NCBI GenBank assembly: GCA_000004985.1
Contig: GG739072.1
DNA: 8,349 nt
Source: Naegleria gruberi
Lineage: Eukaryota
Direction: 5' to 3' (one strand)
Both the position numbers and the translations under genes were made by a program. The notes under the pieces are model-generated. The model saw only the letters and a program-made list of their open reading frames with translations. It was not told where the DNA came from and made no database searches. Every line of letters starts with the position of its first letter. Position 1 is the first letter of the stretch. Below are positions 2-8,338 of this stretch, piece by piece.

Positions 2-1583
2 GGTGGAGATACCGTTTACAATGTTTGTTTTTATGCTCTTGTTACAGTTGACGACTGCGGTAAAGGTCAGGTGGTCGCCATAGCAGTAACCACTGGAGGT
101 AAACAGGAAGGTGTTAAAGATGTAGTTGACATCACAGAATCAATCTTCAAGAAAGCTGACATTCCATTTACTATTCACAATATAGGTGTGGATGCTTGTG
201 ACTCATCATTAAACGAGTTTCAAGAAAGAGGGTTTTCAGTTTCAATATGCCGTTTTCATTTCATCAAGGACATCCAATCAAATTTGAAAGACAAAGTGTC
301 CGATACTAAAGTTCGATCAGAATTGTTAGGCTTGGTCTATAGAATGCTCATAAGCACACATGATGATGACTACCATGATTGTTTAGAGGCTTTGGAAAAC
401 ACAGACAAAGAAGGTGCTTTTTACAAATACTTCCATGAGCAATGGAATAAGCATCGACATTTATTAACAAATGCAGGCCGAACAAGTAGCATGTCTTTTA
501 TGAACACGACCAATTATGTGGAAAGTGCAATTAAGAGCCTACAAAAGCAAATCAAGGGAACAACTCAGAAGAAGAAATCTCTTCATGTTTGTTTATTGTT
601 GTCGATTTTGGCAATAAGAGGACAAGTGTTAAATGTTGTTCCTACCGATTTCAATGAAAGTGAAAAAGAAGCAAATCAACGGTTGGCAAAAGCCCGAGAA
701 ATGGTGAAACTCCCTATAGTTGTTGGTGATAACAATTATGTTGTACCAAGTGAATCAGATGATGATAATTATCTTGTTGTTGTTGGTGAGCAAGGTTTTT
801 TTTGCTCATGTGATGATTTTCTACACACCTGCGGCCGACCATGCAAGCACATTTATAGGGTAATACTTTCCTTACCGGTGGCTCAAAATTATTTGGGTCG
901 CAGTGCTGTGGAATTGTTGCAGGGTGTTTGCATTTTTTTTAACATCAACATTGAATTAAACAGAACCTCCACTATTCCACACTTTATTCCAAAGGATGAA
1001 CCATTACTTCTTCCTTTGGCAATCAATAACAAATTCCCGAGAAGGAAAAAGTGCGGTAGAAAACACAAACCACCAATTCCAATTACTAATCCAACAACAA
1101 AGTATGATCATGTACATGTAGATGACAATATTGAAGTCGTTCCTTTAGATGAGAACTTGCAATGTTCTGTGGATGAACTGATTCTTTCCAAAAATGAGCT
1201 TGTAGGTATTGTGAAGAACGGAGAAGAAATTCTCTTACATATTAAAATACCAAACAGAAAAAATGTAATAGATTTAGAGATATTCAAAACCAAGCACCAA
1301 GAAACTCAAATACGGATCTTCTGGGCTTTTATTGAAGAAAGTTTGAATAGATGTGATGCTTCCTATGTAAAGAAGATAAAAACCGCTGAGAATGAAACTG
1401 TAACAGGAGTGAAATTATCTAAAGACAAGACAAAGGTGAAACTCAGATTAGGAATTGAAAAATGGATATATTATTCAGTGAAATACCGACAATTCTTGAA
1501 TAATTTTATTGGATTGGATTGTTGGAAATTAACAGAGCAAAACACTACAATTACGAACGAAAGCCAAAAACAATTAGAAAATA
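2..1583 (+). CDS. MULE/MuDR-family (Mutator-like) DDE transposase with a SWIM zinc finger and a long C-terminal extension. Partial: the 5' end is upstream of the window and the 3' end is lost in the N gap.
   Basis: The reading frame (frame 2) is open from nt 2 to the gap with no stop in 527 codons, which is very unlikely by chance at this AT content. The translation ...VYNVCFYALVTVDDCGKGQVVAIAVTTGGKQEGVKDVVDITESIFKKADIPFTIHNIGVDACDSSLNEFQERGFSVSICRFHFIKDI... matches the MULE transposase core (compare MURA ...LLTAVGRDGNNQMFPIAWAVVEVENTESWTWFL...WTFISDQQKGLLNAISVVFPNAEHRMCARHI...). TTNYVESAIKSL matches the T-N-x-x-E-S-F-N catalytic Glu region. CSCDDFLHTCGRPCKHIY is a SWIM finger. The 'M' at 71 in the ORF track is a GTG codon internal to the domain, not a true start. 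The first catalytic Asp (the DATY-type motif) must lie upstream of nt 1. Confidence 0.8.
803..850 (+). other. SWIM-type zinc finger motif (C-x-C-x6-C-x3-C-x-H) within the transposase ORF.
   Basis: The codons are tgc(803) tca tgt(809) ... tgc(830) ... tgc(842) aag cac(848), giving CSCDDFLHTCGRPCKH. This spacing is typical of SWIM fingers found C-terminal to MULE/FAR1 transposase cores. Confidence 0.7.
1021..1095 (+). other. Basic, Pro-rich patch (KFPRRKKCGRKHKPPIPITNPTTKY) that resembles a nuclear localisation signal, in the transposase C-terminal extension.
   Basis: Dense R/K cluster, RRKK..RKHK, read from the translation. The function is inferred and not demonstrated. Confidence 0.35.
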
Positions 1584-4500
1584 NNNNNNNNNNNNNNNNN
1601 NNNNNNNNNNNNNNNNNNNNNNNNNNNNNNNNNNNNNNNNNNNNNNNNNNNNNNNNNNNNNNNNNNNNNNNNNNNNNNNNNNNNNNNNNNNNNNNNNNNN
1701 NNNNNNNNNNNNNNNNNNNNNNNNNNNNNNNNNNNNNNNNNNNNNNNNNNNNNNNNNNNNNNNNNNNNNNNNNNNNNNNNNNNNNNNNNNNNNNNNNNNN
1801 NNNNNNNNNNNNNNNNNNNNNNNNNNNNNNNNNNNNNNNNNNNNNNNNNNNNNNNNNNNNNNNNNNNNNNNNNNNNNNNNNNNNNNNNNNNNNNNNNNNN
1901 NNNNNNNNNNNNNNNNNNNNNNNNNNNNNNNNNNNNNNNNNNNNNNNNNNNNNNNNNNNNNNNNNNNNNNNNNNNNNNNNNNNNNNNNNNNNNNNNNNNN
2001 NNNNNNNNNNNNNNNNNNNNNNNNNNNNNNNNNNNNNNNNNNNNNNNNNNNNNNNNNNNNNNNNNNNNNNNNNNNNNNNNNNNNNNNNNNNNNNNNNNNN
2101 NNNNNNNNNNNNNNNNNNNNNNNNNNNNNNNNNNNNNNNNNNNNNNNNNNNNNNNNNNNNNNNNNNNNNNNNNNNNNNNNNNNNNNNNNNNNNNNNNNNN
2201 NNNNNNNNNNNNNNNNNNNNNNNNNNNNNNNNNNNNNNNNNNNNNNNNNNNNNNNNNNNNNNNNNNNNNNNNNNNNNNNNNNNNNNNNNNNNNNNNNNNN
2301 NNNNNNNNNNNNNNNNNNNNNNNNNNNNNNNNNNNNNNNNNNNNNNNNNNNNNNNNNNNNNNNNNNNNNNNNNNNNNNNNNNNNNNNNNNNNNNNNNNNN
2401 NNNNNNNNNNNNNNNNNNNNNNNNNNNNNNNNNNNNNNNNNNNNNNNNNNNNNNNNNNNNNNNNNNNNNNNNNNNNNNNNNNNNNNNNNNNNNNNNNNNN
2501 NNNNNNNNNNNNNNNNNNNNNNNNNNNNNNNNNNNNNNNNNNNNNNNNNNNNNNNNNNNNNNNNNNNNNNNNNNNNNNNNNNNNNNNNNNNNNNNNNNNN
2601 NNNNNNNNNNNNNNNNNNNNNNNNNNNNNNNNNNNNNNNNNNNNNNNNNNNNNNNNNNNNNNNNNNNNNNNNNNNNNNNNNNNNNNNNNNNNNNNNNNNN
2701 NNNNNNNNNNNNNNNNNNNNNNNNNNNNNNNNNNNNNNNNNNNNNNNNNNNNNNNNNNNNNNNNNNNNNNNNNNNNNNNNNNNNNNNNNNNNNNNNNNNN
2801 NNNNNNNNNNNNNNNNNNNNNNNNNNNNNNNNNNNNNNNNNNNNNNNNNNNNNNNNNNNNNNNNNNNNNNNNNNNNNNNNNNNNNNNNNNNNNNNNNNNN
2901 NNNNNNNNNNNNNNNNNNNNNNNNNNNNNNNNNNNNNNNNNNNNNNNNNNNNNNNNNNNNNNNNNNNNNNNNNNNNNNNNNNNNNNNNNNNNNNNNNNNN
3001 NNNNNNNNNNNNNNNNNNNNNNNNNNNNNNNNNNNNNNNNNNNNNNNNNNNNNNNNNNNNNNNNNNNNNNNNNNNNNNNNNNNNNNNNNNNNNNNNNNNN
3101 NNNNNNNNNNNNNNNNNNNNNNNNNNNNNNNNNNNNNNNNNNNNNNNNNNNNNNNNNNNNNNNNNNNNNNNNNNNNNNNNNNNNNNNNNNNNNNNNNNNN
3201 NNNNNNNNNNNNNNNNNNNNNNNNNNNNNNNNNNNNNNNNNNNNNNNNNNNNNNNNNNNNNNNNNNNNNNNNNNNNNNNNNNNNNNNNNNNNNNNNNNNN
3301 NNNNNNNNNNNNNNNNNNNNNNNNNNNNNNNNNNNNNNNNNNNNNNNNNNNNNNNNNNNNNNNNNNNNNNNNNNNNNNNNNNNNNNNNNNNNNNNNNNNN
3401 NNNNNNNNNNNNNNNNNNNNNNNNNNNNNNNNNNNNNNNNNNNNNNNNNNNNNNNNNNNNNNNNNNNNNNNNNNNNNNNNNNNNNNNNNNNNNNNNNNNN
3501 NNNNNNNNNNNNNNNNNNNNNNNNNNNNNNNNNNNNNNNNNNNNNNNNNNNNNNNNNNNNNNNNNNNNNNNNNNNNNNNNNNNNNNNNNNNNNNNNNNNN
3601 NNNNNNNNNNNNNNNNNNNNNNNNNNNNNNNNNNNNNNNNNNNNNNNNNNNNNNNNNNNNNNNNNNNNNNNNNNNNNNNNNNNNNNNNNNNNNNNNNNNN
3701 NNNNNNNNNNNNNNNNNNNNNNNNNNNNNNNNNNNNNNNNNNNNNNNNNNNNNNNNNNNNNNNNNNNNNNNNNNNNNNNNNNNNNNNNNNNNNNNNNNNN
3801 NNNNNNNNNNNNNNNNNNNNNNNNNNNNNNNNNNNNNNNNNNNNNNNNNNNNNNNNNNNNNNNNNNNNNNNNNNNNNNNNNNNNNNNNNNNNNNNNNNNN
3901 NNNNNNNNNNNNNNNNNNNNNNNNNNNNNNNNNNNNNNNNNNNNNNNNNNNNNNNNNNNNNNNNNNNNNNNNNNNNNNNNNNNNNNNNNNNNNNNNNNNN
4001 NNNNNNNNNNNNNNNNNNNNNNNNNNNNNNNNNNNNNNNNNNNNNNNNNNNNNNNNNNNNNNNNNNNNNNNNNNNNNNNNNNNNNNNNNNNNNNNNNNNN
4101 NNNNNNNNNNNNNNNNNNNNNNNNNNNNNNNNNNNNNNNNNNNNNNNNNNNNNNNNNNNNNNNNNNNNNNNNNNNNNNNNNNNNNNNNNNNNNNNNNNNN
4201 NNNNNNNNNNNNNNNNNNNNNNNNNNNNNNNNNNNNNNNNNNNNNNNNNNNNNNNNNNNNNNNNNNNNNNNNNNNNNNNNNNNNNNNNNNNNNNNNNNNN
4301 NNNNNNNNNNNNNNNNNNNNNNNNNNNNNNNNNNNNNNNNNNNNNNNNNNNNNNNNNNNNNNNNNNNNNNNNNNNNNNNNNNNNNNNNNNNNNNNNNNNN
4401 NNNNNNNNNNNNNNNNNNNNNNNNNNNNNNNNNNNNNNNNNNNNNNNNNNNNNNNNNNNNNNNNNNNNNNNNNNNNNNNNNNNNNNNNNNNNNNNNNNNN

Positions 4501-6781
4501 NNNNNNNNNNNNNNNNNNNNNNNNNNNNNNNNNNNNNNNNNNNNNNNNNNNNNNNNNNNNNNNNNNNNNNNNNNNNNNNNNNNNNNNNNNNNNNNNNNNN
4601 NNNNNNNNNNNNNNNNNNNNNNNNNNNNNNNNNNNNNNNNNNNNNNNNNNNNNNNNNNNNNNNNNNNNNNNNNNNNNNNNNNNNNNNNNNNNNNNNNNNN
4701 NNNNNNNNNNNNNNNNNNNNNNNNNNNNNNNNNNNNNNNNNNNNNNNNNNNNNNNNNNNNNNNNNNNNNNNNNNNNNNNNNNNNNNNNNNNNNNNNNNNN
4801 NNNNNNNNNNNNNNNNNNNNNNNNNNNNNNNNNNNNNNNNNNNNNNNNNNNNNNNNNNNNNNNNNNNNNNNNNNNNNNNNNNNNNNNNNNNNNNNNNNNN
4901 NNNNNNNNNNNNNNNNNNNNNNNNNNNNNNNNNNNNNNNNNNNNNNNNNNNNNNNNNNNNNNNNNNNNNNNNNNNNNNNNNNNNNNNNNNNNNNNNNNNN
5001 NNNNNNNNNNNNNNNNNNNNNNNNNNNNNNNNNNNNNNNNNNNNNNNNNNNNNNNNNNNNNNNNNNNNNNNNNNNNNNNNNNNNNNNNNNNNNNNNNNNN
5101 NNNNNNNNNNNNNNNNNNNNNNNNNNNNNNNNNNNNNNNNNNNNNNNNNNNNNNNNNNNNNNNNNNNNNNNNNNNNNNNNNNNNNNNNNNNNNNNNNNNN
5201 NNNNNNNNNNNNNNNNNNNNNNNNNNNNNNNNNNNNNNNNNNNNNNNNNNNNNNNNNNNNNNNNNNNNNNNNNNNNNNNNNNNNNNNNNNNNNNNNNNNN
5301 NNNNNNNNNNNNNNNNNNNNNNNNNNNNNNNNNNNNNNNNNNNNNNNNNNNNNNNNNNNNNNNNNNNNNNNNNNNNNNNNNNNNNNNNNNNNNNNNNNNN
5401 NNNNNNNNNNNNNNNNNNNNNNNNNNNNNNNNNNNNNNNNNNNNNNNNNNNNNNNNNNNNNNNNNNNNNNNNNNNNNNNNNNNNNNNNNNNNNNNNNNNN
5501 NNNNNNNNNNNNNNNNNNNNNNNNNNNNNNNNNNNNNNNNNNNNNNNNNNNNNNNNNNNNNNNNNNNNNNNNNNNNNNNNNNNNNNNNNNNNNNNNNNNN
5601 NNNNNNNNNNNNNNNNNNNNNNNNNNNNNNNNNNNNNNNNNNNNNNNNNNNNNNNNNNNNNNNNNNNNNNNNNNNNNNNNNNNNNNNNNNNNNNNNNNNN
5701 NNNNNNNNNNNNNNNNNNNNNNNNNNNNNNNNNNNNNNNNNNNNNNNNNNNNNNNNNNNNNNNNNNNNNNNNNNNNNNNNNNNNNNNNNNNNNNNNNNNN
5801 NNNNNNNNNNNNNNNNNNNNNNNNNNNNNNNNNNNNNNNNNNNNNNNNNNNNNNNNNNNNNNNNNNNNNNNNNNNNNNNNNNNNNNNNNNNNNNNNNNNN
5901 NNNNNNNNNNNNNNNNNNNNNNNNNNNNNNNNNNNNNNNNNNNNNNNNNNNNNNNNNNNNNNNNNNNNNNNNNNNNNNNNNNNNNNNNNNNNNNNNNNNN
6001 NNNNNNNNNNNNNNNNNNNNNNNNNNNNNNNNNNNNNNNNNNNNNNNNNNNNNNNNNNNNNNNNNNNNNNNNNNNNNNNNNNNNNNNNNNNNNNNNNNNN
6101 NNNNNNNNNNNNNNNNNNNNNNNNNNNNNNNNNNNNNNNNNNNNNNNNNNNNNNNNNNNNNNNNNNNNNNNNNNNNNNNNNNNNNNNNNNNNNNNNNNNN
6201 NNNNNNNNNNNNNNNNNNNNNNNNNNNNNNNNNNNNNNNNNNNNNNNNNNNNNNNNNNNNNNNNNNNNNNNNNNNNNNNNNNNNNNNNNNNNNNNNNNNN
6301 NNNNNNNNNNNNNNNNNNNNNNNNNNNNNNNNNNNNNNNNNNNNNNNNNNNNNNNNNNNNNNNNNNNNNNNNNNNNNNNNNNNNNNNNNNNNNNNNNNNN
6401 NNNNNNNNNNNNNNNNNNNNNNNNNNNNNNNNNNNNNNNNNNNNNNNNNNNNNNNNNNNNNNNNNNNNNNNNNNNNNNNNNNNNNNNNNNNNNNNNNNNN
6501 NNNNNNNNNNNNNNNNNNNNNNNNNNNNNNNNNNNNNNNNNNNNNNNNNNNNNNNNNNNNNNNNNNNNNNNNNNNNNNNNNNNNNNNNNNNNNNNNNNNN
6601 NNNNNNNNNNNNNNNNNNNNNNNNNNNNNNNNNNNNNNNNNNNNNNNNNNNNNNNNNNNNNNNNNNNNNNNNNNNNNNNNNNNNNNNNNNNNNNNNNNNN
6701 NNNNNNNNNNNNNNNNNNNNNNNNNNNNNNNNNNNNNNNNNNNNNNNNNNNNNNNNNNNNNNNNNNNNNNNNNNNNNNNNN
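1584..6781. other. Assembly or scaffold gap: 5,198 consecutive N. This is not sequence.
   Basis: Uninterrupted n from 1584 to 6781. The non-round length suggests an estimated gap size from paired reads. Both flanking ORFs run into it. Confidence 0.99.
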
Positions 6782-7318
6782 TGAATATTCCAAAGAATTC
6801 ACAACTTCTGGTGCTTGATATAAATAATCTACTGATCGACTGGAATTGAACTTTGAATTGTTAACACCTAGCTTAACAGCTCTTGAGAAATTACCAATTT
6901 TGTATCGTCCTTCATCCTTAAAGTAGAATATATTCTCTGGTCTCAAATCACAATGGACAAAATCTAAATCATGTAAACGAGAAAGACTTTCGGCAACATG
7001 TAAGCAAACCTTCAAATCATTTGTTTCGTCTATTTCTTTCACTAAATATTCTGCAAGTGAATATTCTGCTTTCGGAATAATTACATAATTTTTCAAGAAA
7101 TCAATATTTCCATTGTCTAATATTGGTACTAAATAATTATCAGTTGCATCTTGTTGGGTATTTTTGATTTTTAAATAGGTTTCGTATTCTTCCCCAATTA
7201 AAATTTTCATCAGAAATTTCTTGGAAGGATCATCCTTCAAGCAAACATTAACGAAGCGTGATTGTTTAAAATTTTCATCGAGTGCTGAATATTTGACGGG
7301 CCACGATTGCTTGTACAT
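6782..7318 (-). CDS. Eukaryotic-type protein kinase-like protein, paralogue of the gene at 7367..8338. Only the N-terminal 179 aa are present and the 3' end is lost in the gap. Atypical motifs: no glycine-rich loop, HCD catalytic loop, and NFS in place of DFG.
   Basis: The ATG is at 7318..7316 (cat on the + strand). An in-frame stop sits 2 codons upstream on the minus strand (TAA, complement of 7322..7324). Translation: MYKQSWPVKYSALDENFKQSRFVNVCLKDDPSKKFLMKILIGEEYETYLKI...LHDLDFVHCDLRPENIFYFKDEGRYKIGNFSRAVKL...YLYQAPEVV. This contains the HxDLKPEN-type catalytic loop (HCDLRPEN), the APE motif and a candidate beta3 Lys (FLMKIL). The ORF is continuous up to the first N. Confidence 0.78.
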
Positions 7319-7366
7319 TTTTTATAATATTCTAATTCGAAACCTTTCAGAATTCAAAAAACAAAA
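7319..7366. promoter_or_regulatory. 48-bp divergent intergenic region that must hold the core promoters or 5' UTRs for both head-to-head kinase genes. It is AT-rich, with a TATAAAA-like motif immediately 5' of the minus-strand ATG.
   Basis: The sequence is ttttataatattctaattcgaaacctttcagaattcaaaaaacaaaa. The reverse complement reads ...gaattagaatattataaaaATG for the minus gene. The plus gene has an A-rich leader, ...ttcaaaaaacaaaaATG. It contains the short palindromes ttcgaa and gaattc and an imperfect inverted repeat, aattcgaaa/tttcagaatt. Confidence 0.4.
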
Positions 7367-8338
7367 ATGAGTGAAGGCCAGTGGAGGTGTGTGATTAAAG
7401 CACATCCTCCCCATGATGTTCTGGAAATTTGTTCTCTACTAAACAGCTTTGTTATTGAAGTTGATAGAATATTTATTTCTAATTGCCAGATTTTTGCTTT
7501 TGCTGGCGTGTGGGAATTAACATTCCCAAGCCGAAACGAGGAAGGAAACGATAGATTTATTGAATTTAATGAATCTACATTCAACAAATTGCGAAGTTAT
7601 TGTTTAAATATTGAAAGACTATTTCTTTCGGGAACCAAAGCTATTAGTACCGAATCTCTGTATCTAAAAATTGTTCTATTATTGGAGGAGGAAGATAATC
7701 CACTGGAGAGGTACAAGTATATTTACAACAAAGTGAAGGAAGCCGAAATATCTTGTGTGCAACACTATTATGAATATTTAGAACACCAATATTTTGTAAT
7801 TATTAGCGAAAAAGCAGAGTGTGATTTAAAAACCTATTTGGAAACGAATGAGTTGAGTTTGGAAGTTAGGATAAATCTCTGTGTACAATATGCTGAGCTA
7901 GTACTAAAATTACATGAGCAGAATATTGTTCATTGCGATTTGAAACCAAGCAATGTATTGGTACTCAAGGATGGCAGTTTAAGGCTAACTGATTTTGAAG
8001 GGTCTTCTTACTTGAAAGATAACAAGAGCTTTTTCAATTCCCATTGTAAATCAATTGGTTACTTTGATGAGACAGTTAGTGTTGAGCAGTTTCAAGACCT
8101 TTTAAATCGTGATTTATTTGCTTTGGGTATTAGTTTTATTGAAATATTTATGTGTAATCCGAATAATCATATTACAACAAAGCACGAATTCATCAAGAGA
8201 AAAGAGTTTGCCAAATATCCATATTCAACAATTTATCANACAGTGGAATCTTTTCTTAAAAACGATCAGTCTCGTAGTATTAAAGATTTAATACATAAAT
8301 TACAGGAAGTTAGCATTGAGTTGAGTTACATGATTTAA
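7367..8338 (+). CDS. Protein kinase-like protein, 323 aa and complete. It has a roughly 130-aa unrecognised N-terminal region and a kinase-fold C-terminal region with HCDLKPSN, DFE in place of DFG, and subdomain IX DLFALG. It has no glycine-rich loop.
   Basis: The ATG is at 7367, with an in-frame upstream stop at 7325..7327 (taa), and the ORF ends at TAA 8336..8338. The translation contains ...LHEQNIVHCDLKPSNVLVLKDGSLRLTDFEGSSYL...DLFALGISFIEIF...RSIKDLI, which corresponds to kinase subdomains VIb, VII, IX and XI. There is one ambiguous base (n at 8239), giving one X residue. The motif order parallels the minus-strand gene: AECDLKTYL...HCDLKP versus AEYSLAEYL...HCDLRP. Confidence 0.8.
   Translation: MSEGQWRCVIKAHPPHDVLEICSLLNSFVIEVDRIFISNCQIFAFAGVWELTFPSRNEEGNDRFIEFNESTFNKLRSYCLNIERLFLSGTKAISTESLYLKIVLLLEEEDNPLERYKYIYNKVKEAEISCVQHYYEYLEHQYFVIISEKAECDLKTYLETNELSLEVRINLCVQYAELVLKLHEQNIVHCDLKPSNVLVLKDGSLRLTDFEGSSYLKDNKSFFNSHCKSIGYFDETVSVEQFQDLLNRDLFALGISFIEIFMCNPNNHITTKHEFIKRKEFAKYPYSTIYXTVESFLKNDQSRSIKDLIHKLQEVSIELSYMI

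Follow-up and report, generated by a model that had tools for sequence, protein, structure and literature searches.

Protein kinases are classed as pseudokinases by sequence when they lack at least one of the VAIK Lys, the HRD Asp and the DFG Asp, and substituting these catalytic residues is a routine way to abolish conventional kinase activity (PMC13519141). In human ULK4, the DFG position is occupied by NFC; the protein binds ATP tightly with no need for Mg2+, which destabilises the complex, with N139 contacting the α and β phosphates of ATP and Arg125 and Lys126 also making phosphate contacts (bioRxiv 10.1101/2020.06.18.159293). STK40 likewise has NFC at this position (bioRxiv 10.1101/2020.06.18.159293), within 'TNFCL'. 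PEAK1 and PEAK2 (SgK269 and SgK223) represent a different kind of case, since they keep the catalytic-loop Asp and APE and act as scaffolds (PMC5660093). Here we compare these systems with a kinase-like gene fragment from Naegleria gruberi, a predicted pseudokinase in which NFS stands at the DFG position.

The window, by which we mean the whole stretch of DNA analysed, corresponds to one complete, small and unplaced scaffold (GG739072.1, 8349 bp) in the draft genome of the amoeboflagellate N. gruberi. Its 3150 determined bases have a GC content of 34%, and three long ORFs were found in it, at 2..1583 (plus strand), from 7318 down to 6782 (minus strand) and at 7367..8338 (plus strand). The features of the scaffold are as follows.

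2..1583, plus strand: remnant of a MULE/IS256-like transposase with a SWIM zinc finger (CSCDDFLHTCGRPCKH), assigned from a SWIM match, the transposase match being weak
1584..6781, no strand: scaffold gap, a run of 5198 N amounting to 62% of the scaffold
6782..7318, minus strand: protein-kinase-like gene, its first 179 codons, covering kinase subdomains I to VIII, supported by the ORF, Pfam, AlphaFold2 (AF2) and Foldseek
7319..7366, no strand: spacer of 48 bp, 19% GC, between the divergent start codons
7367..8338, plus strand: head-to-head kinase-like paralogue of 323 aa, with a Pfam Pkinase match of 67.1 bits

One further ambiguous base (N) is present at 8239, inside the neighbouring kinase-like ORF. 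In the gap, the minus-strand kinase-like gene loses the rest of its C-lobe and any domains that follow it, and the transposase-like ORF loses its 3' end. As the start codons are separated by only the 48-bp spacer, any promoter region serving the two kinase-like genes would have to be bidirectional and very compact. The SWIM/MULE ORF, which is truncated on one side by the scaffold start and on the other by the gap, is 100% identical to EFC35675.1 / XP_002668419.1 ('predicted protein, partial [Naegleria gruberi]'), and when 5.8 billion proteins were searched by word index, it matched nothing related besides itself. Exact-protein look-ups gave no recorded gene context for the scaffold proteins or for EFC35779.1, an N. 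gruberi protein considered below.

The minus-strand ORF starts with an ATG at 7318 and its frame is open down to 6782, where the gap begins. The N-terminus of this ORF is fixed, because an in-frame TAA lies two codons 5' of the ATG; we considered a missing upstream exon carrying the Gly-rich loop and rejected it on account of the same stop. An open frame of 179 codons would arise by chance with p ~1e-6 at the local base composition (31% GC). The 179-aa fragment matches the Pfam Pkinase family (PF00069) with 44.6 bits against a cut-off of 31.7 and an E value of 1.5e-11, over profile positions 84-174, and by its sequence it is thus a member of the eukaryotic protein kinase superfamily, the curated threshold having been passed. 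Kinship to bacterial kinases (MAD6, PknB) was also considered and rejected, the NCBIfam scores being far under their cut-offs and reflecting the generic kinase core only. The AF2 model of the fragment (pLDDT 77, pTM 0.71) comprises the N-lobe and the first half of the C-lobe, with elements in the expected order: β1-β3, αC (43-54), β5, αD, αE (98-117) and β7/β8 (130-133 and 138-141). Confidence is highest in the catalytic core, where pLDDT exceeds 90 across residues 100-140, and helices αF to αI of the fold fall within the gap. The best PDB matches to this model in Foldseek were all protein kinases, with E values of about 1e-7 and TM scores of 0.6-0.67.

We assigned the active-site motifs from phmmer alignments, from a 29-sequence MAFFT alignment of the fragment with distant kinases, and from the AF2 model. 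All of the following lie on the minus strand.

7244..7282, minus strand: residues 13-25 (LDENFKQSRFVNV) at the Gly-rich loop position, with no glycine (29-sequence alignment)
7205..7207, minus strand: K38, the β3 (VAIK-type) Lys in 'FLMK', codon AAA, in an invariant alignment column and in predicted strand 34-39
7187..7189, minus strand: E44, the αC Glu, codon GAA, in a column with Glu in 25 of 29 sequences and in predicted helix 43-54
6932..6955, minus strand: catalytic loop, H122-C-D124-L-R126-P-E-N129 (phmmer and 29-sequence alignment)
6884..6892, minus strand: N143-F144-S145 at the DFG position, codons AAT TTC TCA (phmmer, 29-sequence alignment and AF2)
6806..6814, minus strand: A169-P-E171, an intact APE at the end of the activation segment (phmmer and 29-sequence alignment)

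The initial annotation had proposed that NFS replaces DFG, with Asn for Asp and Ser for Gly, and this placement is borne out by profile alignments, pairwise alignments and the AF2 model alike. In the 29-sequence alignment, the column of N143 (codon AAT, at 6892..6890) holds Asp in 26 of 29 sequences, that of F144 holds Phe in 27 and that of S145 holds Gly in 26. In the AF2 model, which supplies the structure prediction that the initial annotation had called for, the fragment adopts a kinase fold and N143 comes right after predicted strand β8 (138-141). A phmmer search against PDB chains placed HCDLRPEN...YKIGNFS...YQAPE opposite HRDLKPEN...VKLTDFG...YSAPE of SNRK; the stretch of the fragment concerned, HCDLRPENIFYFKDEGRYKIGNFS, was also aligned opposite 'YRDLKPENIL..HIKLTDFG' of RSK2.

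The same annotation had the catalytic Asp (HCD), the catalytic-loop Asn (RPEN) and APE as retained and the Gly-loop as absent, and we reach the same assignments. D124 and N129 are both in invariant columns of the 29-sequence alignment, and APE is intact at residues 169-171. Residues 13-25 contain no Gly in a protein whose N-terminus is set by the upstream stop; S20 and V23 occupy Gly-loop columns that hold Gly in 15 of 29 and 17 of 29 sequences, and AF2 models these residues with low confidence, placing a short helical turn at 17-20. To these deviations we add one that was missing from the earlier list, which is that R126 (in DLRPEN) puts Arg at the catalytic-loop Lys position, where 27 of the 29 aligned sequences have Lys. 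Thus, judged by this alignment, the features of catalytic competence that are present in the fragment are the β3 Lys/αC Glu pair and the catalytic Asp and Asn, while those that are absent are the DFG Asp and the GxGxxG Gly-rich loop.

By the sequence rule given above (PMC13519141), the fragment is a predicted pseudokinase because the DFG Asp is absent, as had been suggested initially, and the other deviations agree with this call. The Gly-free phosphate loop and the change of the DFG Gly to Ser strengthen it, and the change of the catalytic-loop Lys to Arg points the same way. Retention of K38, E44, D124 and N129, on the other hand, leaves room for nucleotide binding. It is unusual for a long-dead site to have kept all four, and this could mean that some catalysis persists, perhaps in altered form, or that the change is very recent. 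Metal binding at the DFG position should also be regarded as weakened rather than strictly impossible in the case of N143, because the carbonyl oxygen of an Asn can ligate Mg2+, as N171 of PKA does.

The reading that we favour, and consider probable, is that the fragment encodes the pseudokinase domain of a fast-evolving, lineage-specific protein, with a binding, scaffold or regulatory role that is possibly nucleotide-stabilised but non-catalytic. The domain retains the kinase fold along with most residues that face nucleotide and substrate (K38, E44, D124, N129, the spine Phe F144 and APE). With no carboxylate for the two Mg2+ ions and no backbone clamp from the Gly-loop, we infer that Mg-ATP would be mispositioned for efficient phosphoryl transfer, and the protein would then serve as a binding, scaffolding or allosteric module. 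If nucleotide is still bound, it would most likely be metal-free, with the Asn143 side chain and Arg126 touching the phosphates directly in the manner of ULK4. The C-terminal domains that the kinase-like domain would regulate, whatever they are, would sit within the gap.

The fragment is like both ULK4 and STK40 in having Asn at the position of the DFG Asp, a retained Phe, a third residue other than Gly and a degenerate Gly-rich loop. The β3 Lys, αC Glu and HRD His, however, are all kept in the fragment but missing from ULK4. No specific sequence kinship to ULK4 appeared in the PDB search, in which SNRK, RSK, PAK and PKR were the best matches, at E values of about 1e-5. PEAK1 and PEAK2 resemble the fragment in retaining the catalytic-loop Asp and APE, but they are metazoan proteins in which SHED dimerisation helices flank the kinase domain and the nucleotide pocket is occluded, and the common ground shown is the kinase fold only.

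The nearest relatives of the fragment are in N. gruberi itself. The head-to-head neighbour, which is open throughout its 323 codons, shares 36% identity with the fragment (E 6e-13); in an alignment to StkP it has HCDLKPSN in the catalytic loop and DFE for DFG, and it has no APE. Its AF2 model has a pLDDT of 70, with the N-terminal ~75 residues poorly modelled (pLDDT <50). The closest full-domain relative is EFC35779.1 / XP_002668523.1, a protein of 893 aa with 33-36% identity over residues 34-173. This protein is from the same organism and is degenerate as well, and the N-lobe stretch 'VPI.D.G..D...Y.I.PK' is common to both, but the degenerate sites differ: EFC35779.1 has Thr for the β3 Lys and HGN for HxD, while it retains the DFG Asp in the form of DFK. 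The strongly degenerate kinase-like domain of EFC35779.1 is followed by two PPPDE/Peptidase_C97 domains. Because these nearest relatives, at 33-36% identity, are degenerate too, the gene of the fragment is placed by its sequence among fast-evolving, degenerate kinase-like genes.

Beyond N. gruberi the matches are distant. No orthologue of the fragment was found among about 15 billion proteins, and a word-index search gave no relatives. When 1.84 billion cluster representatives were searched exhaustively with phmmer, 654 matched at E values up to 1e-3, with identities of 26-42%; none of them matched at E <1e-30, the best identities were 33-40%, and no orthologue more than about 36% identical came to light. 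A profile built from the fragment, its neighbour and EFC35779.1 gave generic kinases only (26-42% identity), and its negatives are weak evidence, given that it missed its own member EFC35779.1. No related sequence was found in viral contigs, in a phage collection or in metagenome contigs, and there was no exact DNA match in bacterial and archaeal genomes; the idea that the DNA came from a virus or a bacterium was given up when the SWIM/MULE ORF proved identical to an N. gruberi protein.

The best phmmer scores are sums over several kinase domains in long multi-kinase proteins from Tritrichomonas musculus, an oomycete and metagenomic eukaryotes. The best matches, from T. musculus and Thraustotheca clavata, have 3-6 tandem kinase domains per protein; in two T. 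musculus proteins the first domain is degenerate, having HCN with GFE or NLR, and the later domains are canonical. Multi-kinase proteins of the T. musculus type resemble the fragment in that several of their domains are degenerate, with HCN/GFE, NLR or NFG, but the identity of these protist proteins to the fragment is only 27-40%, they come from other supergroups, and their tandem domains have no evident counterpart here.

We surveyed the same motifs in 263 kinase-domain stretches taken from the 150 best distant matches, a set that is biased toward the query. The DFG position was readable in 237 of the 263 stretches, and Asn was present there in 23 of them, or ~9% (NFG in 6, NFE in 6, NFS in 2, and others). 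Among 244 stretches spanning both motifs, which are not independent samples, the DFG Asp was missing in 5 of the 11 with Arg in the catalytic loop, compared with 18 of the 187 with Lys (Fisher p = 0.004). This is indicative of loss of the catalytic-loop Lys accompanying loss of the DFG Asp among distant kinase-like sequences.

The fragment and the neighbouring ORF are both absent, as exact sequences, from the protein collection, and with no protein of identical sequence there, the fragment is apparently unannotated. We considered the possibility that it is a decaying or non-functional copy (a pseudogene) or an assembly leftover, in which case NFS, the Gly-loop and the Arg change would be neutral decay following a recent duplication in a poorly assembled region associated with a transposon. 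Absence from the collection fits this explanation, as the scaffold's MULE/SWIM ORF does occur there, and so do a scaffold of just 8349 bp that is 62% N with one more ambiguous base, a transposase-like ORF on that scaffold, the degeneration of both the neighbour and the nearest paralogue (each in different motifs), and the failure to find an orthologue anywhere in the collections searched. The coding sequence itself argues otherwise, however. It stays open over all 179 codons in DNA of 31% GC, for which the chance probability is about 1e-6, and its ATG starts right after a stop. In addition, K38, E44, H122, D124, N129, F144 and APE are intact, the AF2 model is confident in the core, and the neighbouring ORF is open as well, over 323 codons. 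We regard decay as unlikely, even though it would fit several features of the scaffold.

The retained residues raise the opposite possibility, that the fragment belongs to an active but atypical kinase in which Asn143 and the charge of Arg126 support an altered use of cations (one metal, Mn2+ or none). The fragment still has D124, N129, the K38-E44 pair and APE, and there is precedent for Arg in the catalytic loop, as the Src-family tyrosine kinases have Arg at the same position (HRDLRAAN). Compensation of this general kind is known from WNK and POMK, which were first called pseudokinases and in which compensating residues are present (PMC13519141). Nevertheless, replacement of these catalytic residues routinely kills activity, and the metal-independent activity reported for CASK (GFG) is now doubted (PMC13519141). 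With the loss of all the Gly-loop glycines, a second element that positions the γ-phosphate is gone, and ULK4 and STK40, the natural examples of Asn at the DFG position, are non-catalytic. Retained activity thus seems to us quite improbable.

A more elaborate idea, and one that we think very improbable, is that a Naegleria-specific clade has kept the Lys-Glu pair and the catalytic Asp and Asn, and has used the Asn and Arg swaps for metal-independent nucleotide binding or phosphoryl transfer, so as to control an effector hidden by the gap, for which a PPPDE peptidase would be the candidate. Finally, we can set aside as exceedingly improbable the suggestion that N143 is a sequencing error for a true GAT codon in an ordinary DFx kinase. 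A single G-to-A difference would be enough, and the scaffold, with its large gap and the N at 8239, is of low quality. Such an error would nevertheless leave the Ser for Gly (TCA versus GGN, at least two changes), the Gly-free loop and R126 unexplained, and Asn is a natural variant here, found in about 9% of the related stretches that we surveyed. A miscalled base at AAT would be unlikely to alter the picture, since the remaining deviations require several independent changes.

Finding a predicted pseudokinase in a protist genome is nothing out of the ordinary, and human proteins with Asn at the DFG position have already been characterised, so beyond annotation the significance of this one is small. 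If metal-free ATP binding or retained activity were true of this protein, it would be a natural test case for the dispensability of active-site residues, for which ULK4, STK40 and CASK are human precedents. Taking the fragment as a non-catalytic pseudokinase, the N. gruberi gene set gains one unannotated, probably non-catalytic kinase-like gene and its degenerate head-to-head neighbour, and the fragment and its relatives illustrate how lineage-specific kinase duplicates in protists degrade at differing catalytic motifs.
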